64,000 bases of DNA, taken from assembly GCA_951406725.2 (NCBI GenBank), contig OX597823.1, forward strand, positions 65,844,001 to 65,908,000, written 5' to 3'. Below the pieces are notes generated by a model. The model made no database searches, had not been told where the DNA came from, and saw nothing but the letters and a program-made list of their open reading frames with translations. Made by a program: the position numbers and the translations under genes. Shown here piece by piece: positions 3,122 to 62,125 of this stretch (position 1 is the stretch's first letter; the number at the start of each line of letters is the position of its first letter). Origin of the DNA: Octopus vulgaris. Lineage: Eukaryota.

Positions 3122-5374
3122 TGTATGTCTGTATGGTATGTGCGCGCGCGCATCTACTGAATGACTGGGGTCATGATGGTGCACAGCCAGTAGATACGTA
3201 TATGCGTGCATGCAGATGTTTATATTCATATGAGTGTTTGTGTGTATCTGTTTGTATGTACATCTTATAATTAGATAGACATTCTTTTCTCACTGGTTGA
3301 TAGTCACACGCTCTCTTTCTTTCTCTTTCTCATTTTCTCTTTCTCTCTCTCTCACTCTCTATCACTCTCATCCCTCTATATTTTCTCTACGTTTTTCTTA
3401 CTATATCACAATTATTAACAGTTGAAGTCGAGTAAAATAAGTGTCATTTCAAGGTTCATTTCCCAGCACAAATATGTTCAATTATGCGATTCAAATGAAA
3501 GAATATCTACATATATGTGTGTGCGTGCATGTGCGCGTGTTCATATATATGTATGCATGTACGTAGGGAGATAATTGATTAACTGTGACACTATAAAGTA
3601 AATTTACGACTTCCTCTTCATCCTTAAGGATACTTCACGCTCAATGTACTGTTTGACGTACCTCCATTGATAACCTCCAGTTGAATAATGATAATCATGT
3701 AAAAACAACTGATAATGGTATGTTGTAGTTAATTGATTGTAAGATCATGGTTGGTGGAACACGATTTCAGTACCATTCTATTGCTAGCTAGAAAGGTTTG
3801 GCTCATGTAGCATTGTCAAAACCGAAGAATACACAATTATACTTCATATAATCCTCGACTAGATAAAGATACATATATAAATACATTTGTACAAATGGCC
3901 TCAATGCTGAGTAAATATATTTTACACACACATAAAGTAAAGTTGGATGAGTTTTTTTTCCAGGCAACAGGATTCAAAGATACATGAAGATAAACTTCTT
4001 AGAAAAATGCTTTTGTGTATTGATTAAATTAGATTTAATCAATATAAATTCTAATACAATAAATGATATTGTCAAGATAATCTCTTTTAAGTGCCCCCAT
4101 TGCAGCCACAAGAAACTGAATTGCTTGTGCACCAGAAAAACAACAAAGATAGTGAATAATATTTACTCAGTTCCCAATGAAGCTCTCTGTCCTCAATGAC
4201 CTAGTCTTTATAGGTTTAAATAGGCGTAATGACTGTAAGCCAGCACAAGGAGAGTAGTGTTCCAAAATTGCAAAGTGGTGCCGCATTTGAGATGAATTGG
4301 CGAAGTTGATTCATTCCAAATTAAGCTTTCAGTAATGTCTTTTTGTACTACTTAATGAGGAGATGCGGTACTTTTCCTCCAAAATAAAATAATTCCAGAA
4401 ACAGTCAAAGTTTATGTTAATGCAATCAATTTTCAATACATAAGTAGTAAAACACTTTTGCAAATTGAACTTAGGAAGTTTTAATAATTTTCTCATACAA
4501 TTTGGAAGATGTTTTCATAGAAACTTCGTTTCGTTTCTCAAATTAAGAAAAAAAAAACGTATTCCAAATCTTAATACAAAATATATTGAAAACAGTTTAT
4601 TTTTAAGTTTTAAGTTTGTAATCTTTATACATTTCCCTATTACATAAGATTTGTAAACAGACTCATTTTTGTTATTAATTCGGCTTGAATTTATTGAATA
4701 TTTTACTACCCCCTTATATGTTCTATACAATACGTTAATAGAAAAAGCAATTCTTTATTTTATTTGAAAACACTTTCTGTCTGTTTTTCGTAATTTTCTG
4801 ACTAATCTGATTTCTCTTTACATTTCACTTAAATTCTCCAAGTGATTAGTTTTAGCTAACCCATAGTCAGACAAACTACGAGCTTCACATGTCAAAGTTG
4901 ATTATGACGTCGTCTACATATGCCATGAGTTTATAAAATCTGATTCACTGGCAGAAGTGAACTATCTACCATCTTCATTTCTTTGCTGCCTTATTCCATG
5001 ATGCATTTTAATTCATGATGCTAAGAAAACAAATATTGTTTTGTTCGTGCTGCATTTATTATTACGTAGCCCAAAATTGTATCCGTGACCAAAACTATAG
5101 TCAAAGATCAATTGTATTTTCTTTAATATACCTGTAGGTATGTATGTGTGTATTATATATATAATAAAATATTAGGGAATAAATCCAAACTTACAGGGAA
5201 AAATCAGATTTAGGATTGAATCCAATTTTATTGTAAAATATTATATTATATTAAATTAGAGATAAAACCACTATTAGGCAAATCATACAATGAAAAACTT
5301 AAGCCAATACATAAGATTAATTCATTTATATTATTTAAATATATATCAAAAATATTAAAAAAGATAATTAATAT

Positions 5375-5443
5375 AACACTACGATCGTTTCATGGCTGTT
5401 CAATTCTTAAAATTTTCGAGTTACAGTCATTCTTCAGGTGGTT
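5375..5443 (-). ncRNA. Type I hammerhead ribozyme fold (element 1, left arm, mirror copy)
   Basis: Reverse complement of 5486-5554. Confidence 0.75.
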
Positions 5444-5485
5444 TACATATTTAACTTGATTAAACCTCGCCAAGTTAAATATGTA

Positions 5486-5554
5486 AACCACCTGAAGAAT
5501 GACTGTAACTCGAAAATTTTAAGAATTGAACAGCCATGAAACGATCGTAGTGTT
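5486..5554 (+). ncRNA. Type I hammerhead ribozyme fold (element 1, right arm)
   Basis: cac-CTGAAGA(5492-5498)-atgactgt...acagccat-GAAA(5538-5541)-cgatc-GTA(5547-5549)-gtg; helix III acgatcgt is a palindrome; helix I is short (cac/gtg, bulged extension). Confidence 0.75.
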
Positions 5555-5673
5555 ATATTAATTATCTTTTTTAATATTTTCGATATATATTTAAATAATA
5601 TAAATGAATTAATCTTATGTATTGGCTTAAGTTTTTCATTGTATGATTTGCCTAATAGTGGTTTTATCTCTAA

Positions 5674-5733
<60 letters not shown>

Positions 5734-5737
<4 letters not shown>

Positions 5738-6068
5738 TAAGCTCGACGCTCTAACCACTGAGCCATGCGAGGTTGTGAGCTCGAATCCCGGACCGGGCTG
5801 CGTGTTGTGTTCTTGAGCAAGACACTTTATTTCACGTTGCTCCAGTTCACTCAGCTGTAGAGATGAGTTGCGACGTCACTGGTGCCAAGCTGTATCGACC
5901 TTTGTCTTTCCCTTGGATAACACTGGTGGCGTGGAGAGGGGAGGCTGGTATGCATGGGCGACTGCTGGCCTTCCATAAAACAACCTTGCCCGGACTTGTG
6001 TCTAGGAGGGTAACATTCTAGGTGCAATCCCATGGTCACTCATGACCGAAGGGGGTCTTTACCCTTTT
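5734..6068 (+). mobile_element. SINE family B copy with inverted 5' head
   Basis: 5770-6068 matches 2527-2805; 5734-5769 is the reverse complement of the head cgcatggctcagtggttagagcgtcgagcttacgat. Confidence 0.85.
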
Positions 6069-6306
6069 ATATATATATATAATTAATCAATATAGGGTGG
6101 CAAAAAAATTTTGTAGAATCTTATTGCCACCAGCGGCCTAGTGGGAAAAAATTAAATAGTCATAAACCATTTTTAAGTTCAACATCACAATCAAGGAACG
6201 GCCATAATAGGCCATTCACCCACTAGAAATAACAGCCAAAAGCTTCAACCGCAAAATAACATCAATTCCGTAAACCAGGAGAAAATTAAAAAACATTTAC
6301 CCTGTA

Positions 6307-6413
6307 ATTTCTTATACGATGCACCGTTTCATCTACTGTTTAATGGTAAACTAACCTGATTAAATTAAATCAAGCCAATCTACCATAGGCCCTTAGATTC
6401 ATCAGTAAGAAAT
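6307..6413 (-). ncRNA. Type I hammerhead ribozyme fold (element 2, left arm, mirror copy)
   Basis: Reverse complement of 6566-6672 with one difference in the helix II loop. Confidence 0.88.
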
Positions 6414-6565
6414 AGCCAAGTCGGAACAGATAGTTTTCACGAGGCATTCTCATCCTTGCCTCGGCAATATCTGACCTAAAATTTTCAAATCATCGCACTC
6501 GCGCCAAATTTATCGGCAGCAAATTTATTTGCTGCCGATAAATTTGGCGCGAGTGCGACTTGGCT

Positions 6566-6672
6566 ATTTCTTACTGATGAATCTAAGGGCCTATGGTAGA
6601 TTGGCTTGATTTAATGTAATCAGGTTAGTTTACCATTAAACAGTAGATGAAACGGTGCATCGTATAAGAAAT
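6566..6672 (+). ncRNA. Type I hammerhead ribozyme fold with extended helix II (element 2, right arm)
   Basis: Helix I atttctta/taagaaat (8 bp); CTGATGA 6574-6580; helix II atcta/tagat plus 18 bp G-U-rich extension atggtagattggcttgat/atcaggttagtttaccat; GAAA 6649-6652; helix III acggtgcatcgt; GTA 6662-6664. Confidence 0.88.
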
Positions 6673-6818
6673 TACAGGGTAAATGTTTTTTAATTTACTC
6701 CTGGTTTACGGAATTGATGTTATTTTGCGGTTGAAGCTTTTAGCTGTTATTTCTAGTGGGTGAATGGCCTATTATGGCCGTTCCTTGATTGTGATATATA
6801 TATATATATATATATATA

Positions 6819-7485
6819 CTAAGCAATTAAGGGTTTAGCAACGAATTGCCTTACCGCACACCGAATTTAGAAATAGCAGTCAAAGAGATTATAGCTATTT
6901 CTTCTACTAAAAGGGAGATCACAGTAAAGACACAGCATTTGAAAGGCAAACACAAACAGGTAAGAGAGAATGAATTAACGGCAATCTATCATACAGTTTT
7001 AAGTCACCTACGGACGTACGTTTCGAGATCAAGTCTTAGGAAAGCATAAGAATTAGATAATTCTACCTTACCCAGACTTCTTCTCTCATCAGCGCAGGAT
7101 ACAAACAATCATGAATGATTGTATATTGAATTTTGAGATACTAGAAGGCACCAACTCAACTCAGTATCAGAGCGAGCTAGAAGCCACAGCTAGTATCACC
7201 AAATTCAAAGTGTGAATGAAAGCTTGTGTCACCAGTCCCTTCCCACCCGCGTGTAGCCAAGACAAAGTGCTGTGGTCATTTACTGGGATGAATATGGTTA
7301 TCAGTAACAATGAAGGGTGAAATTAATTAATTTGGAATAATTATCAATTACACCAAGTAGTCTTCGGAATGTAAAAGCCTCATTCGAGGAAAATTTTCCT
7401 CGAATGAGGCTTTTACATGCCGAAGACTACTTGGTGTAATTGATAATTATTCCAAATTAATTAATTTCACCCTTCATTGTTACTG

Positions 7486-7489
<4 letters not shown>
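6819..7489 (-). mobile_element. Non-coding element 3 (PLE pseudo-LTR-like) ending in a 192 bp palindrome, between (TA)n tracts
   Basis: Hammerhead at 7007-7098 (-); spacerless palindrome 7298-7489 centred on gaaaa|ttttc with one mismatch; (TA)n on both sides. Confidence 0.75.
7007..7098 (-). ncRNA. Type I hammerhead ribozyme fold with extended helix II (element 3)
   Basis: Minus strand reads cctgcg-CTGATGA-gaga...tctc-GAAA-cgtac-GTC-cgtagg; helix I 6 bp, helix III palindrome acgtacgt, canonical GUC triplet; helix II continues via aagtct/agactt and agaatta/taattct. Confidence 0.9.
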
Positions 7490-10599: not shown

Positions 10600-11060
10600 A
10601 GGATACACATCTTAGAAGAACAGAATGGAATAAGTGAAGCAAGAACACACGAAAACGAAACATGTTGCTGAAGAGGTGACAGATGTGTGACGAAAGATTT
10701 CCAATGATAACTGCATTGGCTTGTAGGATTGGCCCTGGCATTAATTGTAGAACTAGAAATGTAGTTTACAGCATAAGATGCACAGATATTACTTGTAAAG
10801 AAATGAACATGACATACATAGTGGAGACATCTAGGAGCATTGCAGAACGACTAAATGACCATTTGGGATAATATGACAACAAACAACAATCCTCCATAGC
10901 CTACCAACATACCAAGGACCAACATGGAAGGAACCTGGGTCAACTTGACATTCGCATCTTATCCAAGCACCCAAAGGACCCAACACTCAGACACATACGG
11001 GAGTACGTCCTCATAAATGAAACTTCCCTAATACTAAATAGGAAATTACATAGTAGATAC
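10600..11060 (+). pseudogene. Penelope-like element GIY-YIG endonuclease remnant
   Basis: ORF 10683-10871 INCRTRNVVYSIRCTDITCKEMNMTYIVETSRSIAERLNDH matches the VVY..C..C..YIGET.R....R..H pattern; continues past a stop with IAYQH..DQH and DIRILSK. Confidence 0.75.
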
Positions 11061-12920: not shown

Positions 12921-15651
12921 TTTTCAACAGATTGTACGCTTTAAAAAGAAACTATTAAAGTGTCAGGTAGCAGTGTTATGTTCATCTACGGTTGAAGACT
13001 ACCGCCCAGTTAGGCTGTGGCAATATTTGTCCCCAAAACGGATAGATCAGGGGCAAATATTACAATGAACCTGGGCCAATATTCTTACAGCCCCATTAAT
13101 TTACTGCCGTGGGTTGTTACATTATTTTGTTATCACTCCTGAATTTATGAAATGCAAGGATGACCATAGACCATAGAACTAATCCCTGAAGATTTAGTGA
13201 CATGATTCTGCCAATTCGAGGCTTAACATGGGATATAGAAAGATGAACGAAGATAAGATTATAGTAAAACCTTATCGAAGAATGTTGTAATGAAATGAGA
13301 GTTGAAGAGATGTTTTCTAAATTTGTACATTTTTATCTATATCAACCAACGTATGAAAATGCTACCAGACACCAGCAATTTTACAAGGGTAGATTACGAG
13401 CAACAATGCAGTGGGAGACACGTAGAGTTACTGATCCCTCTGTCATAGGAGCTCTAACTCAACCAATTCCAGTATGAATCCCGTTTGAGGATCATTCACA
13501 CCACTCTTCTCCAGGCTTGGATATCTTAAAAAGTGTTGTGATTGAGCGCATCATTTCCACCACTCATTAAACGTTTTAAACAATTAGGGACTTGCTTTAA
13601 TTTAGAGAGTTTGCTAAATTTAATTAAAACATCTTTCATCAATATTTTGATATTCATATACAGAAAATTATGAAAGAGTAAAAGAAAACATTGTAAATTT
13701 ATATAAATACCACAACAGGAAAGTTCATGTGATTGCTTAATATTTATCGATAATTAAGTTGTGATGGACACACTTGTTGAATGAGAAACAACTTTTGATT
13801 AATTTAGCTTTTAATTCATAGGAGTACTATTGTATCCACCCTGGAGAGGTGTTTGTCAAGTACAACGATTGTAGAATTATAATTCCGTTGTGAATATTGT
13901 CTACATCTATTGTTCTTGACAAGTTAATGTATGTGCTATAATGATACAAACATTAAGATGAATCGAACAACAAATGATAGATGCACTATAAACAAACGAA
14001 TGACGAGATAAGAAATGAAAGACCAATACGAAAATATACTCACAGTATTTGCAACTGGTAGAGTTAGCTACATGTTGTGAAACAACGCATTTACTGCCGC
14101 TTCTCTTTCGTTCGTATCTTCCCAATTCTCTGATACCAAACTTGAAAATGTAATACTGAACTCACTTTTTTTCCTATGACCAAAGGTTACCATTGAAATG
14201 TTGCAGTGTAAAAAGTAACTTGATGGCATTTCGCCTCGTTAGTTTCAGAATTCCACTGTCACTGAAACTCATGTGAATTATCATACCTTTTCTTCATAAA
14301 TAATTTGCTAAAATTAAAGTACCTTGCAGATTAAAACAATATTAGAATTTCAATTACAGGTTGATTGGTATTGACGTCTTTACTATTTAGCGGTGGGACG
14401 TGAAGATAACATTTCTCATATTTTCTAACGTTTAAAGACTCCCTTTCTTTCTAGTGAAAAAGACAGTGTCCAGTTGAGCAGAGGAGTGGCACAAGGGTAA
14501 ATGTACTTGTTCTCTTAATTGCATCTTTTTATATTTTGAAATACTTTGCTTCCTTCCGAACCGATAGTTACTTTCGTTTGTAGTCAATTATTAAGGAAAT
14601 ATCTGCTGTTGTGACTTAGATTCAAGCTTTCCTTCATTTTCTGTCACTATAATAAAGGAAAAAGAAATACTTCTGCTGTATACTACACAACTTTTATTTC
14701 AGGTTTAGGCTTTATAATAATACATTTTTAGCAGACGCAACAAAATCTGACCCACAGAAGTGTTATCTTTTCGACGTGCCTTTTCTACCGCTCCTCTCAA
14801 CTTTGCTCTTCCTGAGATTTGTATGGTCTTATATACTGTAGCATACAAGACCTACTCGTCTTTGCGCTATTCATCTTCAGACTTGCAATGACGTTCAGTA
14901 CTTCGTTACTTCACAGAATATCCACCCTCAGGTATCTATTCATTGCTTATATTTTCCCCATACGTGTCAATGTTCAACGATTTTTTTAAACGGATCATCA
15001 ACAGTATGGATATCTTCGGTTTCAGATTGTCTCAAAGGCTATGGATATTGGACGCTCTTCTAGAATTAGTAAGTAAAAACTTAATTTACAGAGAAGGATT
15101 TCATAGAAATTTGACTGTGTGCTTCAGGTGAGTGATACGGACTCCATTTCTCATCTGCCAAAATCCCCAATTGCAGCTACTCGATAATAAAGAAAATTTG
15201 ATTTGTAGAATTTGAAAATAAAAGGATGAATAACTTTGGAAATCTATATATTTCTTCTCATTTACATCTTTGACTGTTATGAATCTGAAGCATAATTTCG
15301 GATATACAATAGCATTGAATGTCAGATTCTTAATGTATTTCTTCTTTCATACTAAGGCGCCCTTGCATGTCAGTTGTTGTTTGGATAATTTTCTGCAAAC
15401 TCTATCTTTGAAATATTGAAGATATGGGAAATTGTCTTCGCTACGACCGGAATTAGTTTCCTTTATTCGGAATTATTTCATGTATTCAGTATTATAATCT
15501 CTACCCACACAATACATTCACAACAACACACACACGCACACACAGAGTCATACCCACAGACACTTGAGCGCATATGCTCATGAAAGGAAATATAATTGCA
15601 TATTTCTTTTCAATTCAATACTGTTCGCAAACCGATTCACATACACGATTA

Positions 15652-15708
15652 TTATATATAGATTCTAATGATCGATGTGACACATCGATCATTAGAATGT
15701 ATATATAA
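15652..15708. repeat. 57 bp near-perfect palindrome
   Basis: ttatatatagattctaatgatcgatgtg-a-cacatcgatcattagaatgtatatataa, one mismatch. Confidence 0.9.
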
Positions 15709-16140
15709 CAATGCTGTGCGTTAATGTTGGTACATTAACGACAACATATGATTAATATTTATACTATAGATTCCGGTGTTTAGGAAAGCAACGTTAACCC
15801 ATCCAACCCAGATCTGAACTCACAACTCAGAAATACAACACGATATACTCTACAACGTTTAGATCTTTGTTCTAACCTTTGTATCTCCCTAGAAAATTAA
15901 CTCTAGTTTAATAATTATTTCGGAAAATACGGAAGTAATTTCGGATATGTTCCTGTTTAAGTGTGAGGCAAATGGTTTAGGTCAAATGTTCAATACCTGG
16001 CTAAAATTTCTTTCACAAACTAAATAAAGTCCTCGATATTTCGGTAAATAAGTGTGAAATATCATATGAATAGAATAATTGCAAATCACCATAGGATAAA
16101 CACATTACACATTTTAATATCTTATTATGAATTCTGAGCG

Positions 16141-21816: not shown

Positions 21817-22447
<631 letters not shown>

Positions 22448-23922: not shown

Positions 23923-24006
23923 CATTCTACACATGTTTCAAAGGCCACAAATTTCCAAATTCTGATTGAATAATGGGACCATATTGCAGCTTTCTCTTCA
24001 GGAAAA
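23923..24006 (-). ncRNA. Type I hammerhead ribozyme fold in a non-coding insert between microsatellites (~23711-24075)
   Basis: Minus strand ttttc-CTGAAGA-gaaagctgcaa...ttgtggccttt-GAAA-catgt-GTA-gaatg; helix II 10 of 11 pairs with G-U, helix I short. Confidence 0.7.
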
Positions 24007-24298: not shown

Positions 24299-26729
24299 AC
24301 CTGTTGGACTAGGGCCTCTTAAAAATTTTATTTATAAGAATTTTTCCATATTTAAGGAGACTGCGGTCTTCGTAAAATATGTAGAAGCGCTGCGTTGGTT
24401 AGCTATTTGATGGAGAGCACATGGACAGTGCGAAAAACTCCGTCCACGTAGCGTAAAAGATTGTTTTTAAGGCCAGCAGATGTTAATGTTTCATGATACC
24501 CGATGAAGGAAACCGAGGGTATCCCTATAAACCTGCCTTAATCAGTAATATATATATATTAATCAAAGGAATTTCAACTTTGATTTTGACGTTTTATTTA
24601 CAATCATATAATAACATAATATGAAATAATATGATATAATGAAATGATAGAAATCTAAATGTTCATACTGATTGAACTAATACTTTTATGCATCAAACTA
24701 TCAAATCTTCAGGCTCATATAATAGTGGTGACAGTTATCTTTTACAATTTACAGCTGTAGTGAGATGGCTAAAATGTGTGCCTTAAATACATTTGTATAG
24801 ACTCCACAATGTCAAGTTTTGCAAACTGTATTCTGACCAATCAGTGTGTTGCTTCACTAAAGTTGATTCGAGTTTGTTTAAGTGTCACGGTTTGTTAGAC
24901 ATGTCAAGAGACCTGTAATTTGACCCTGGCCAACGCAGTAATTGTTTGGCTATTTTTAGAAATGTATTAATTTCCCAGAGATTTCTACATTTCAATTACC
25001 ATCGCCATCTTTATTATTGTTGTGTTTGTTGTTTTTGTTGATGGTGTTGACGGTGGTGGAGGTGGTGGTGATGGTTGTGATAGAAGTAGCTGTGGTAATA
25101 AAACCTTAAACCCTAAATAAGATTATTTTTACTGACTTTTCTCTTGACTTAGCTAGTATTTTCCTGTTATCGTCATTATGAGAAATGTTCATATTGATTG
25201 AGCTAGTACCTTCATGCATCAAACTATACATTAAACTATGTATTCTTGTTGTTGCTGTAGGTGGTAGTGGTCGTAGCAGTAGAAATAATACCTCTAAATA
25301 ATATTATTATTTTTTTTTAGCTTTGGTGATAAGTTATCAATAAAGTTCTTTGCTCTGATGTTTCTCTCGATTCCGCTTTGTATGTGTAGATTGCTGAATA
25401 GAAATGTAAATATTTTCCGACCACATGTTGCTAGATGGTTACTCAAAGGTATCTGACAGACATCTGGGTGTTTAATTTGCTGTCGGTGTACACGTCAACG
25501 TTCTGATATTGCATTTTCACTCTGACTCACATATAGTTCTTCACAATTCGGGTATTAGGTACTTCCGAGGAAGAATAGGTGTCGTTAAAAAATTGATTTC
25601 AGATGCGTTTCAGCATATTTTTCGCATTTATATGCCTTCCAGAACTTTTGTTTTCTTATGTTAAGAAATGTTTTCTATGTCTAGCACATCCCTTTTCTTT
25701 TTTTTTTAGATGAGCGTCGTATTCCAGATATCTCTCGTTTATCTCTGACATCCAAGGATGTTGTGGTAGATCGTAAAAGCGTTGATATAATTTCAACTAA
25801 TTCTTAATTCCAGAGTTTTTTTGGGTTCAGTTATCAGTTTTCCGTCTGTAGACTGCTTTACTATTTCTTTTAAAATAGAGGATTGAGTGTCAATCATTGC
25901 GATGCGCGTTGGTAATTTCGATAAAATTTCAATTAGAATTCTTTCTGATTCTGTTAATTTTGTTTGTTGCTTTGTTAACATTTTGATATATACACAATAG
26001 GGATATATATATACAGACGGGTATGTATGATTGTGTGTACATGAATATATTAATCGAAGGAATTCCAACATTGTTTGATTTTCACTCTTATAATAACATA
26101 ATATATAGCTGGTCCAGCTTGCCCTACCCACCATCTAAGCAATTGTATTGAACTTGTTTTGAAACCACTATGTACCTACATACCCAGTTTCATTCAGGAT
26201 AGCATCGACTACCTATCCCATCTTCCCAAAACAACAGAAGCAAATTCACTTTTAATTAGTTAAGCATCTGTATCCACTCAAAACAAATTCATTCACTCAC
26301 CGCAAATTGTGGACTCTCGCAATGTTTGCATGAAGTTACTGAGTTTAGGAAATGGTCATAGTCGGTCACCAGTTGACTTCCACCATATATACGTAAAAGA
26401 ATGCGGTATATAATGTAAGGAAAGAATTCAACAGCTATTGGAATTAAGCGAGGTACATGATATAACTGTAACCGGTTTTCTCAACGAGTAGTAAAGCTTA
26501 TTTGTACAAATAGTTATAGCTACAGGTCATGCTTTTGTAGTGATGCTGCCACATTTTATCGATGGTTAGCGGCATCATAAATTACATCTATCTACCTGTC
26601 TGTCTGTCTATCTACCTGTCTGACAATCTGTCTGTCTGTGTGCCTGTCCCTCTCAGTATGTGTATGTGTGTATGTCTCTCTCTCACTCTGTATATAGATA
26701 GATATGGTTGGCTGGCGTTAAATATTGAC

Positions 26730-28754: not shown

Positions 28755-28821
28755 CTATGTACCGATGAGTTTCGATTGTTAATATCCACACATATGTATA
28801 TCTGCAATCTCATCAGCATAG
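28755..28821 (-). ncRNA. Type I hammerhead ribozyme fold in insert ~28586-28852 between (TA)n tracts
   Basis: Minus strand ctatg-CTGATGA-gattg...caatc-GAAA-ctcatcg-GTA-catag; helix I and basal helix II both perfect 5 bp. Confidence 0.82.
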
Positions 28822-28990: not shown

Positions 28991-29509
28991 ATTACAAGGA
29001 AAAATACGAGCATGAAAAGTCATATTCTTAAGATTATAAACTTGGAAATGTACAGGACAAGTTATTACCCATGTAAAGGTATAGGACAATCTATTGCTTC
29101 TGGTAAAGTAAAGGATAAAAAACTTTTTACTTAAAATATTCCAGCTAAAATTAGAATTTTATTATTAAAAATTAATCCATTGTAGTTTACAAATCACACT
29201 ATACCTATTTAAGTAGATTTTGGCTAATTTACTACCTTAAATACTGAAAAAAGAGTGACTAATTAGACAAACTTACAAACTAGCTGAACAGTTTTATATA
29301 ATAAATTTAAAAGATGAGAACTGTTAAGAGTGATGAATTAGAAGAACTGGTATTCTTAGCTGTAATATTTTAAGTAAAATATTTCTTATTCTTTACTTTA
29401 GTAAAATAGCTAGTCCTCTACTTTTACAGGTGTAATAACTTGTCCTGTATTTTTCCAGGTTTATAATCTTAAGAATATGACTATTCATGCTCGCATTTTT
29501 CCATGTAAT
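28991..29509. repeat. Old fold-back / MITE-like inverted repeat (~155 bp arms)
   Basis: 28991-29148 vs 29356-29509, e.g. cgagcatgaaaagtcatattcttaagattataaac / gtttataatcttaagaatatgactattcatgctcg. Confidence 0.8.
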
Positions 29510-29683: not shown

Positions 29684-30973
29684 CGAGGGACGTTCAATAA
29701 GTAATGTCTCTGACCCACTTGCACTTGTTTGATCTAGCTGAAATTTTGCTTGTGCAATTATTTATGTCTCTATAGATTAAGTGGCAAATTACAGCTCTGA
29801 ATTAATTGTGGTTTCTGATTTACAGGTGTTTGAACCGAGTCAAGTGTGAGATGGAGCCTGTTGAGTGTCGAGCAGTGATCCGGTTTTTGTATTTGAAAGG
29901 ACGCACACCACGGGAGACTTTTGATGAAATGAAAGTAACTTATGGTGATGATGCCCCATCATATGACCTTGTAAAACGCTGGCATCGTGAATTCAAACAT
30001 GGTCGGAACTCTGTGGAAACAGCTCCCAGATCTGGTCGCCCCTTCTGCCATTGATGAGGCATCTGTCCGTCAAGTTGAGGCTGCCATTTTGGAAGATCGA
30101 CGCATAATTCTTCGCCAAATAGCCCATGAGGTCAAGATTAGTACCGGGTCTGTGGAAACTATCATTCATGACCATTTGCATATGCAAAAGGTGTCTGCCA
30201 GATGAATTCCCAGGTTGCTCACGCCTTTCCAGAAGCAAGAACGCGTCGAGTGCTCGAGGGTGAATTTGGAGATGTGCCAAGAAGATGAGTCAACATTTTT
30301 CAAAAGACTGATTACACAGGATGAAACCTGGGTCCATCACGATGATCCAGAGACCAAATCCCAGTCAATGCAGTGGAAGCACCGTGACTCACCCCCTCCA
30401 AAGAAGGCAAGGGTGCAGCCCTCCGCTGGCAAGGTCATGCTCACAGTCTTCTGGGACCAGGACGGAGTAGTGATGACATATTTCCTGGCAAAGGGTATCA
30501 CAATTGCAGGAGCCTATTATGCTTCACTTTTGAGGAAATTAAGAGAAGTTATCAAAATCAAGAGGCGGGGCAAGATCAGCAAAGGCATCCTCCTCCTGCA
30601 GGACAACGCTCCGGTCCACAACTCGCTTGTCGCCAGATCAGAAGCACAGGCGTATGGCTATGAACTCCTCCCTCATCCCCCTACTTTCCTGACCTTGCAC
30701 CCTCTGATTTTCACCTCTTCCCAGTCATGAAGTTGTTTTTGAAAGGAAAGCGTTTCCCAGATGATGCAGCCTTGATTTCTGAAGTCACGTTCAGGTTGGA
30801 GGACCAAGCTGGGGTCTTCTACAAAAACGGTCTGCAGAGCCGCATCAAACAATGGGAGAAATGCGTAACACTGGGTGGTTCCTATGTAGAAAAAGACTAA
30901 TAACTGGGCCAAGTTTCGTTGCTCTACTGCTATGGGAAGTGGGTCAGGGGCATTACTTATTGAACGCCCCTCG
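29684..30973 (+). mobile_element. Near full-length mariner transposon (1290 bp), TA target duplication
   Basis: 37 bp TIRs cgagggacgttcaataagtaatgtctctgacccactt / aagtgggtcaggggcattacttattgaacgcccctcg, flanked by TA on both sides. Confidence 0.95.
29851..30900 (+). pseudogene. Mariner D,D34D transposase pseudogene
   Basis: MEPVECRAVIRFL..., RSGRP, *IPRLL (WVPR motif hit by a stop at 30203-30205), ITQDETW, LLQDNAPVH, PDLAPSDFHLF; 34 residues between second and third D after correcting a frameshift near 30680; another frameshift near 30041. Confidence 0.93.
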
Positions 30974-40559: not shown

Positions 40560-41700
40560 TAGGCTTATAATTTGCGATAAAATATGATTTCTTTGCTGAT
40601 TATAGGTTACATTGTCCCTAAATTTATATATGGGAAAATTTCTAAAATTCTAAGGTTATGCTTTTCATTAGTGACGCAAATGATGATGAGTTCGCTTAAT
40701 GCTATTTTCCTGTATTCTCGTATTTTAATCTGGGATCTATATACGGTTATCCTCTGACGCGGACTGTTTATAGTTTGACCAATGTATTGAACTCGAAACC
40801 CTGAGCAAGTTAATACATACATCAAGTTTACCGAAGCACATGGTAAATCGTTTTTCACTGTAAAACTTTGACCCTGTTTGAAAGAGAACTCCGATCTCTC
40901 AATTAGGTTGACTCACATACAACAGTTAGGTCTTCCGCATTTTTTTTAATGTCGGTTTCGATGTTGTCGACGATTGTACTTCGGGTTGTGTTAGAATACT
41001 TTTGATTGACTTGGGATGACATTTGCTCTTTATGACGGTGTGCGTTAGAAGGATTTGATTAATTATGGTCCCTTTTTAGTAAAGGAATGTTCTGGAAGAT
41101 GGTGTCGAAGCTTCATTGTTTAGGGGGTTGTGTGTAGATATGCGTGGTGGTGGTTTTAATTGAAATTCATTCATTAGTTTGGGATGTCTGAGTTCGTGGA
41201 TGTCGAGTTAGTTACATATCAATTAGGGATAGTAGGTGTTCCTTCTGACGTGTATATCCTTCACCTCATGTAGTCGTTTGTCCCTGGTGCTTGTATCAGA
41301 TGCTATAGTGCTAATATTTTTGGCTAGGTAGAATGTGACATTCATTCTAGCGAGTCTGGAGTGGCAAGAGTTGAACGGTAGACATTGCTTGGAGTCCATG
41401 GGTTTATAGTATGTGTCTCTAGTTCTATTTTGCTGTTGGATGTCTTAAGGATGTCGAGGGATGGAAGTTGTTTGCTATATTCCAATGTAAATTGAATGTT
41501 TATGTCAAGTCCATTTAGAAATGCTTGAAATTCTTGCAGTCTCTCTTTACTTTAATAACAAAGAATAAAGCAGTCGTCTAGATATCGCTTCCAGTTATTT
41601 TCCACGTAAAGGGAGAACAAGTCTCCGATTCCATCTAGTAATTTACGATAAAGAGAGATTTCTAGGTGCCACATGACTTGGTTAGGAAAGGAAGAGGGCA
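40560..41700 (-). mobile_element. Degraded Penelope-like retroelement, RT (YLDD) plus thumb, Cys linker and C-terminal GIY-YIG
   Basis: NWKRYLDDCFIL (ORF 41552-41758); YKPMDSKQCLPFNSCH; CGRPNC; CASVNLMYVLTCSGFRVQYIGQT...RQRITVYRSQI (ORF 40607-40858). Confidence 0.85.
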
Positions 41701-42003
41701 ATCTTTTCCCCAGTTTAATTATTTTTTTCTTCTGAATTAATATGCAGCTTTGTTTCACTCTTAGTTGAAAAAGTTAAAATGGCAGAAACCGGCACTAACC
41801 ATTACAAAATGTATTTCATAACGAAATTAATTTAGCATTTTGTGCCTTTTCATATTTTCCTTATACATATCAACTCGTGTGTCATTTTTCAACATTTCAC
41901 ACACACACACACACACACATACACAGACACACACACAGACACACACACACACATATACATATATATATATGATTTCATCCACATGCACACAGAAACGTTG
42001 TCA

Positions 42004-42041
<38 letters not shown>

Positions 42042-42048
<7 letters not shown>

Positions 42049-42592
42049 AAATTCCCTGTTACCCAGATCATATTTCACTTTGGGTGAAAACCTTATTATA
42101 CTAGAATAACTAACTGCAGGATGTGTCACCACGAACAAGCTTATTTCATCTTACCTCTATTGATAAAATTATTTCTATAAAATTCATACAACGTGTAATG
42201 AAACAAAACGTATTAGGTATCATAATATGGAATCAAATATAATGTAATGACTGACAAGGAAATTACAATAACATAAATATACATACACACACACACACAC
42301 ACATATGTATGTATGTATATTTATGTTATTGCGTTTTCCTTGTCAGACATTACATTATATTTGGTTCCATATTATGATACATAATACCGTTTGTTTCATT
42401 ACACGTTTTATGTATTTTATATAAAAATAATTTTATCAATTCAGCTAAGATGAAATAAGTTTGTTCGTGGTGACACATCCTCCAGTTAGTTATCCTAGTA
42501 TAACAAGATTTCCACCCAAAATTGACATTTCCTGATTTATTTGGTTGTTGTCGTTGGGGTTTATGATCTGGGTAACGACGAATTTCTGTTAT
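42042..42592. repeat. Diverged fold-back (~245 bp arms) with microsatellite centre, bounded by (TA)n
   Basis: 42042-42285 vs 42312-42592, e.g. ggatgtgtcaccacgaacaagcttatttcatctta / taagatgaaataagtttgttcgtggtgacacatcc; right arm has ~35 extra bp. Confidence 0.85.
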
Positions 42593-42667
42593 ATACATAT
42601 ATATATATATACATACAAATATATGTATGTATATATAGATATATATATATATATATATATACATATG

Positions 42668-49547: not shown

Positions 49548-49619
49548 TCTCCTCTCATAACTGTTACAAATTGTCTTTTCTAATGTCTGGTACCTGAAAT
49601 AGCTAAACATTATTTTCCG

Positions 49620-50430
49620 TTTAGCTCAAGCTACCTGAAACACATCAAGAGGAATATCCCCTTTAATTTAGCAAAAAGGATTTGCACAATAATGTGTAAT
49701 GCAAATACTCGGGACCTCCCTCTTCAAGACCTCATAGCAACAGTAACTGGGAGACAATATCCACCATCACTTATAGACGGTTGCATTAAGCGTGCCAAGA
49801 AATTAAGCATTAAATCCCTAAGAGAAACAAAGTGTAACTCCACACCACATCTCAAAACACTACCATATATATCAACACACAGGCCTAGAAACAATGAACC
49901 ATACAACACTATTGTACAAAATTTACCTATGCACACCAGAAATCTAAAAATGAAGAACATACTGAAAACATAAATTTATCAAATGCAAAAAGCAGCACAA
50001 ATCGCTGTTACACAACAACCACGAAACCAATGTTTAAAAATGTGGAGGTCTAAACTTTGGAACATTCCCCAGCCTAAAAGAAGGCTCGGAATACCTATTT
50101 AAAAGAGATAGGTTTGCAATTAAATACAACTTCGCTTGTGCCTCCGAGAATCTAATTTATGTTACACATTGTTCAGTTTCTGAACGTAACTATATAGGAC
50201 AGATAAGTATAGCTTTAGACGGAGAACCGCCCTACATAAGGGACAAATCCGTTCACAACAGTAAAGACAGATTCCTTCAAGTGAGCACGTAGGTGTGCAT
50301 GCAATATCCAAACAAACATCAGTTTTCCACATATATCAGTGCAAAGGAAAAATATATATGTACAAGAACGCATAAAGAGAATTCATTTATCGAAAAATAC
50401 AGAACGCACCTAAATATGAACGCATAAACG
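49620..50430 (+). mobile_element. Degraded 5'-truncated Penelope-like retroelement (thumb, linker, GIY-YIG)
   Basis: KHIKRNIPFNLAKRICTI...RQYPPSLID...LPYISTHRPRN (ORF 49692-49973 and upstream), then CASENLIYVTHCSVSERNYIGQ; homologous to 40560-41400. Confidence 0.85.
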
Positions 50431-61876: not shown

Positions 61877-61997
61877 TTCAGTTATATATATATATATATC
61901 CATAGATACATAGATATATATATTATATTTATATATATATACATTATATATCATATACATATATTATACATTATATATATGTATATATAATAATAAT

Positions 61998-62066
61998 ATG
62001 TGGGAATATTATTCCAAACTTACAGGGAAAAATTCAATTCAGAAATGCTAAATCAAATTTCACAAA

Positions 62067-62073
<7 letters not shown>
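61998..62073. mobile_element. Terminal stub of the element 1 family
   Basis: gggaatattattccaaacttacagggaaaaattc vs gggaataaatccaaacttacagggaaaaatc (~5175-5205); TA-rich tracts on both sides. Confidence 0.7.

Positions 62074-62125
<52 letters not shown>

Follow-up and report, generated by a model that had tools for sequence, protein, structure and literature searches.

The hairpin-bearing stretch at 5154–5735 is, with a probability of about 0.8, one insertion of a Penelope-like family that is short, non-coding and very abundant; two copies lie head-to-head in a (TA)n run, and the mirror pair of ribozymes would be a by-product. We call this insertion element 1. It lies in a 64-kb window, by which we mean the whole stretch of DNA analysed; this is animal DNA with plentiful microsatellites and decayed transposons. 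The family unit is approximately 310 nt long, and consists of a 5′ start near 5456, a type I hammerhead, an AT-rich 3′ region and an optional 83-bp tail. The features of element 1 are the following.

5154–5163, no strand: (TA)n run, the left boundary, a target-like site
5164–5246, minus strand: 3′ tail of 83 bp, one-sided, extending the left arm, with no counterpart on the right arm
5247–5458, minus strand: left arm, an inverted copy of the family unit, 5′-truncated relative to the right copy
5371–5448, minus strand: mirror type I hammerhead, identical to that of the plus strand, with its core at 5437–5431 and a predicted cut after 5380
5456–5473, plus strand: inversion junction, where TTG 5456–5458 pairs with CAA 5471–5473
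5471–5682, plus strand: right arm, a sense copy that stops at the inner 3′ end, without tail
5472–5486, plus strand: codons K-L-N-M-stop directly before helix I, resembling the ends of Penelope-like GIY-YIG endonucleases
5481–5558, plus strand: type I hammerhead, with a predicted cut after A5549
5481–5491/5550–5558, plus strand: helix I (3 bp, a 2-nt bulge, 6 bp)
5492–5498 and 5538–5541, plus strand: core, CUGAAGA plus GAAA
5499–5506/5530–5537, plus strand: helix II, with one A-C mismatch
5541–5548, plus strand: helix III, the palindrome ACGAUCGU
5678–5735, no strand: (TA)n run, the right boundary

The geometry can be read directly from the letters. The arms (5247–5458 and 5471–5682) are each 212 nt long, match at 211 of 212 bases and enclose a loop of 12 nt, in agreement with the initial annotation; the sole mismatch, 5348/5581, is a C/T difference at a CpG. 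That annotation took the element to extend from 5247 to 5682, which describes the hairpin correctly but misses the left-only tail at 5164–5246 and the 3-nt microhomology at the junction. This microhomology is the TTG at 5456–5458, with which the left arm ends and the sense copy begins. The loop, 5459–5470, is assigned to the plus-strand copy because other copies of the family begin at 5456. The right copy has 12 extra bases at its 5′ side and the left copy 83 extra bases at its 3′ side, and neither arm contains the other. Both outer ends lie in (TA)n, of which there are 119 runs in the window at a mean spacing of 538 bp; no target-site duplication is readable in the runs that flank element 1. 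The run on the right carries an inserted SINE-like repeat (5736–6070), a second copy of which, 89% identical, is found at 2487–2798; this repeat may resemble octopus SINEs and, with the general repeat landscape, would point to a cephalopod host, probably an octopus. A search with ARAGORN found no tRNA.

The family was characterized by comparing Logan contigs from four of 24 listed runs (X1, X2, X6 and X12) with positions 5000–5690. X1, X2 and X6 are DNA runs and X12 is guessed to be RNA. The flank at 5000–5160 has single-contig depth, from 16 to 47. Expressed as summed contig depth, which is not equivalent to copy number, X1, X2 and X6 show approximately 500–2,800 times the flank depth over the hammerhead and 6,600–47,000 times near the outer end. 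The 3′ end is roughly tenfold deeper than the hammerhead in each of these three runs, as expected from 5′ truncation. Family depth starts in the bin at 5168, to the left of which the depth is that of a single contig, and the family unit therefore runs 83 bp past the left arm as far as the (TA)n run at 5154–5163. The depth of the tail is among the highest of the family in all four runs. X2 record 18 (5184–5278), which derives from another copy, bridges tail and arm, and contigs that end at 5242 into AT-rich letters number 11 in X2 and 12 in X6; both 3′ ends, with and without tail, are used by other copies of the family. A tail-only copy with 78% identity lies between (TA)n runs at 61982–62081. 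The two tails can form a stem in the same place despite their 22% divergence, and this folding is not better than that of shuffled sequences (z −0.88 and −1.07). At the other end of the unit, pieces beginning at 5456 are found in X6 record 32 and X12 record 14, and in the former the sense copy is preceded by 260 nt of unrelated letters, whose depth is that of a single contig. The contigs of X12 match 5456–5559 with no or one difference and leave the unique flank and 5432–5455 uncovered; contigs of this kind show no strand, ends or editing. An exact 28-base motif of the family had no matches among metagenome, genome and viral contigs (three prokaryote/virus collections). The family is apparently non-autonomous and undescribed: it was not described in the accessible parts of the literature on octopus or cephalopod Penelope elements and hammerheads or ribozymes, and Repbase, Dfam or the supplements of bioRxiv 10.64898/2026.07.22.740005 may list it.

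The contigs also contain joints between family copies, 39 in total, of which 15 are listed. Each is supported by one or two contigs, with a short side of 20–36 letters, and mirrors that are nearly complete would escape detection as joints. Thirteen of the 15 listed are head-to-head, with variable cut points and, in many of them, filler letters. Seven of the 15 connect a point in the left arm (5261, 5262, 5324, 5362, 5388, 5396 or 5400) to 5456–5461, so that an inverted copy of variable length abuts a sense copy with a recurrent start. In six more both copies are truncated, again head-to-head and in several cases with filler letters, and the remaining two listed are of other kinds. Both hammerhead cores are kept in none of the 13 head-to-head joints, and no backward joint of tandem type is present, among the 15 listed of 39. 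At element 1 itself, the arms share letters that are rare in the family: those at 5352/5577 are carried by 0.2–0.4% of the family depth and those at 5323/5606 by 0.4–3.3%, while the letters common to both arms at 5286/5643 account for 11–35%. The arms therefore share a single template or source copy, unless they were homogenized later.

The hammerheads were located using a descriptor written from the hammerhead consensus, with which the window and 60 shuffled windows were scanned. It identified seven sites in the window, compared to 0.017 per shuffled window (one site in 60 shuffles). Two of the seven are in element 1, two are in a neighboring element (6184–6795), and there are single sites at 10668, 24001 and 28816. 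The motif of element 1 follows the core rule CUGANGA ... GAAA ... UH with the C3–G8 pair and, as in the minimal hammerheads of metazoan Penelope-like elements (PLEs), positions 15.2–16.2 and loop 3 are palindromic. An unpaired base between 9 and 10.1 and the pair G10.1–C11.1 are absent, helix II being closed by A5499–U5537. The same hammerhead is thus present on both strands with a palindromic helix III, as first proposed; the motif placed at 5486–5554 is indeed there, and its extent is slightly wider, 5481–5558. Both hammerheads read outward from the loop. Rfam gave no hammerhead match at the gathering score over the window, and no hammerhead among 30 matches with E values up to 10 in 5200–7000; the matches were to generic miRNA-hairpin models only, below their gathering scores. 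Variants with a long helix II and a short helix III may fall outside the Rfam hammerhead models.

Folding of the single motif was no better than that of shuffled sequences (z 0.33), 116 of 200 of which did as well. All three helices can form, but the monomer is weak, lying 2.7 kcal/mol above the ensemble, and helices I and II are computed to be held by approximately 1% of molecules. Variation within the family gives a modest sign that the ribozyme may be conserved: the 19 variable rows within the arms correspond to 16 positions after folding (three tail and two flank rows were left out), and none of the 16 is among the 41 core and stem positions (P ≈ 0.03). One subfamily in the loose ends of X12 differs at the first base of helix II. 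The seven hammerheads of the window were not aligned in register by MAFFT, and the arm gave no alignment above shuffles with the other hammerhead units of the window.

The neighboring element, element 2 (6082–6795), is unrelated to element 1. It is also head-to-head, with arms of 240 bp containing three mismatches, and carries a mirror pair of hammerheads whose helix II is very long (cores at 6574 on the plus strand and 6405 on the minus strand, z −4.35). At its center is a 32-bp palindrome with a 2-nt loop. The right copy has a 69-bp deletion bounded by a short repeat. A left-only tail of 102 bp and (TA)n at both ends follow the same plan as element 1. Complete mirrors do therefore recur. A peptide in the element 2 loop that seemed to resemble an endonuclease was dropped, being on the wrong strand.

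Of the single sites, those at 28760–28816 and 23928–24001, both on the minus strand, are type I hammerheads with a palindromic or near-palindromic helix III; each lies in a short unit bounded by (TA)n/(CA)n, and the two belong to different families. The match at 10668–11042 (plus strand) is 20 bp upstream of a GIY-YIG remnant; it is probably inside coding sequence, and possibly a chance match. The window also contains fold-backs without a hammerhead match, at 7298–7489, 42006–42628, 21817–22447, 28991–29509 and 15635–15725. Those at 7298–7489 and 42006–42628 adjoin (TA)n and could represent either MITEs or head-to-head insertions, of reduced length, from other families. A mariner transposase fragment is present at 30206–30730 on the plus strand (Pfam Transposase_1, E 2e-22), with relatives of up to 92% identity; those of its 67 matches that bear a species name come from a snail, crustaceans, a tick and a fish (45–89% identity), with no cephalopod among them.

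We assign the family to the Penelope-like elements by its architecture rather than by a linked ORF; there is no ORF linked to it at the locus. In what follows, papers are cited by accession, for the accessible parts of their text. General features of PLEs are an inverted 5′-truncated copy, a tail of 30–40 bp at one end and targeting to (TA)n (PMC8557442). Element 1 and its family have the marks of insertion by endonuclease-bearing (EN+) PLEs: an inverted, 5′-truncated head-to-head copy, a tail at one end, a (TA)n target and a 3′ bias. The window also contains four remnants of Penelope-like ORFs that match the C-terminus of RT and GIY-YIG proteins. They were found through at least 150 relatives of the remnant at 49584 (full HMMER search); among seven relatives scanned, GIY-YIG was present in five and RVT_1 in four. 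The GIY-YIG ends of the remnants are located as follows.

10722–11042: GIY-YIG-end remnant
25309–25551: GIY-YIG-end remnant
40628–40981: GIY-YIG-end remnant
49963–50421: GIY-YIG-end remnant

Broken ORF remnants of Neptune type, with stops and frameshifts, extend over 25309–26260, 40628–41710 and 49584–50430. The CxxC linker in the relatives of the remnants, by which the Neptune type is defined (PMC8557442), points to this type as the probable one. Alignments of the arm to the 3′-terminal parts of the four ORF remnants scored no higher than those of shuffles. A weak hint comes from the codons K-L-N-M-stop before helix I, which resemble the end of a GIY-YIG endonuclease. All 36 of 36 related proteins, selected for that motif, end in P-x-L/F-N plus 0–9 residues, and the chance of LN-x(1-4)-stop so close is 0.014 per position.

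The initial annotation proposed that a transcript across both arms would contain one ribozyme together with its antisense and form a long dsRNA, and we agree. It further proposed that dsRNA formation would compete with self-cleavage. The antisense is indeed predicted to block the ribozyme, but competition is too mild a word: the computed cost of the hammerhead fold is 106.6 kcal/mol when the motif has just been completed and 108.3 kcal/mol in the whole fold-back, and both ribozymes face away from the loop, so that a transcript from either side reaches the antisense arm before the ribozyme. Already 30 nt of antisense over the core costs 25 kcal/mol. In read-through RNA the ribozyme would thus be dead within approximately 212 bp of dsRNA, which is a likely ADAR substrate; editing of dsRNA derived from repeats is general in animals (PMC9989829). 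RNA that starts at or after approximately 5450 escapes the block, with a cost of 2.4–2.8 kcal/mol up to 5575 and of 7–12 kcal/mol with further downstream sequence. The ribozyme would therefore be expected to fold only in RNA starting in or near the loop, and such RNA would still need a second sense copy in trans or the help of a protein. Two molecules can pair with each other through the palindromic helix III, the self-duplex of ACGAUCGU having an energy of −10.0 kcal/mol, and a co-fold of two copies is predicted to pair through the palindromes, with helix I also swapped. The mirror copy cannot serve as the dimer partner because it is antisense, and a cis dimer at element 1 is impossible. The suggestion that hammerheads of this kind cleave efficiently as dimers applies to the tandem copies of amphibian retrozymes (PMC7229834); minimal hammerheads of Penelope type cleave weakly as dimers in vitro (PMC4209133), and the anole hammerhead requires the protein of its element (PMC11167929).

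The route of copying and joining we infer from element 1 and from the biochemistry of related elements. Penelope-like proteins nick AT-rich DNA, and in vitro both DNA strands are nicked and extended; reverse transcription starts at two internal sites, which delimit the tail, and cleavage by the hammerhead is dispensable for insertion in vitro (PMC11167929). A Penelope-like RT/GIY-YIG protein would have copied the element in trans: it would have nicked AT-rich DNA and initiated cDNA synthesis at two positions within one RNA (or source copy). The outer start site would give the left arm with its tail and the inner site the right arm without it, and the two cDNA ends could then have been joined through the 3-nt TTG microhomology. 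The mirror ribozyme would be incidental, present because the inverted copy happened to extend far enough to include it. Priming of one RNA at two sites would account for arms of which neither contains the other but which share rare letters. The 83-bp tail counts against this explanation, compared to the 30–40 bp reported. A more specific form of it, that the family is a SINE-like, fixed-start Penelope derivative with a conserved hammerhead and a long tail of 83 bp, whose insertions arise from two cDNAs on two nicked strands and two RT start sites of one RNA, we put forward only tentatively. Nothing relevant was found in the literature on twin priming with Penelope.

The strongest competitor, although one that we would bet against, is a snap-back, in which the first cDNA folded on the TTG/CAA microhomology and was copied back, with the endonuclease later trimming the tail at one end. 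The microhomology at the junction and the rare letters common to both arms are what this would produce, the center of element 2 (a long palindrome with a minimal loop) fits it, and self-priming on an antisense template has been proposed for rotifer Penelopes (PMC3846280). It sits poorly with the 12 extra 5′ bases of the right copy and the 83 extra 3′ bases of the left, and with the six listed joints that bring together two truncated copies, in several cases with filler letters. Since neither arm contains the other, pure copy-back would require the tail to be trimmed in a further step and is a little less economical. Another reading is that the arrangement was selected as a regulatory switch: pairing with the antisense would silence the ribozyme or feed siRNA against the family. 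We consider this very unlikely. The energetic cost of the antisense, about 107 kcal/mol for the full arm, agrees with it, as does the second element with mirror hammerheads 500 bp away, and in Drosophila the inverted repeats of Penelope yield siRNAs that match the inverted regions (PMC3681739). Against this, the junction points vary widely and the listed head-to-head joints (13 of the 15 listed) never keep both cores, so that the built-in off switch suggested in the initial annotation finds no counterpart in these copies; the block is total rather than tunable; and insertion in vitro has no need of hammerhead cleavage (PMC11167929). In addition, a survey of 32 molluscs found no endo-siRNA (PMC12479628), and if the host is a mollusc, it is doubtful that such arms would give siRNA.

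Element 1 could also be read as a fold-back DNA element of MITE type, bounded by long terminal inverted repeats and giving rise to shorter forms by internal deletion. The near-perfect long arms, the TA-rich ends and the other fold-backs of the window without a hammerhead match (7298–7489 and 42006–42628) resemble such elements, and “skip” joints could equally be central deletions. We regard this as highly improbable in view of the one-sided tail and strong 3′ depth bias, the conservation of the hammerhead positions and the sense copies that start at 5456 behind unrelated sequence (X6 record 32). Finally, arms that are 99.5% identical raise the question of whether the palindrome is an artefact of assembly or amplification, that is, a fold-back chimera. 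The central junction is spanned by no listed contig, nor is the whole stretch, and the left junction is covered in X1 only, which may be the source of the assembly. Yet one CpG distinguishes the arms, which are also asymmetric in tail and loop, comparable head-to-head joints of other copies are found in three DNA runs (X1, X2 and X6), and in X1 record 1 the unique left flank runs on into the tail, matching 5000–5183 without a difference, making an artefact the least probable of the explanations considered.

We thus return to a head-to-head insertion of Penelope-like type. Its architecture is already known: the hairpin of mirror ribozymes was described between 2013 and 2021. The closest parallel is the arrangement of inverted pLTRs in EN+ PLEs (PMC8557442, PMC3846280), which shares with element 1 a head-to-head, 5′-truncated copy, a tail at one end, a hammerhead in the pLTR and a (TA)n target. 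In a rotifer, head-to-head pLTRs have palindromes at their junctions, and one rotifer copy has inverted pLTRs of 212 bp, the same length as the arms of element 1 (PMC3846280). Element 1 differs in having no ORF between or beside the copies and a tail of 83 bp rather than 30–40 bp, and the sense copies of its family often start at 5456–5461. In the Cercyon PLEs of Schistosoma, minimal hammerheads on opposite strands, approximately 100–700 bp apart, were ascribed to truncated PLEs in 2014 (PMC4209133). Like element 1, these have an opposite-strand pair, a long helix II, a palindromic helix III region and U-rich or AU-rich flanks. In element 1, however, helix II closes with A-U and not G-C, without the unpaired base, and the loop of helix III is a 4-nt palindrome, as in the Drosophila and rotifer variants; element 1 belongs to a different family (PMC4209133). 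A limpet motif in the same paper has the CAC/GUG helix I and CUGAAGA core of element 1. The hammerhead PLE of Octopus bimaculoides, Hydra-1_Obim, shares the (TA)n preference, the CUGAAGA core, the A-U closure of helix II and the palindromic helix III, but its helix sequences differ, and the accessible part of the supplement that describes it shows no match to the 28-base window motif (PMC8557442 supplement).

Non-LTR retrozymes, which are proposed to originate from the pLTRs of PLEs, are likewise short, non-coding and non-autonomous type I hammerhead units, of 170–400 nt (PMC7229834; bioRxiv 10.64898/2026.07.22.740005). They form head-to-tail tandems that are able to cleave as dimers and circularize (PMC7229834), whereas element 1 is head-to-head and unable to do so. 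A hairpin of mirror ribozymes is expected retroelement debris. If transcribed, such insertions would supply the host with much near-perfect dsRNA for editing. The inversion step of Penelope-like retrotransposition is named as unresolved in PMC8557442, and this family is of some use for testing models of it, because it is abundant, its inversion junctions are numerous and independent, and it has two 3′ ends. If priming at two sites is correct, the thousands of junctions in one genome would provide a direct genomic test of how inverted PLE insertions arise.
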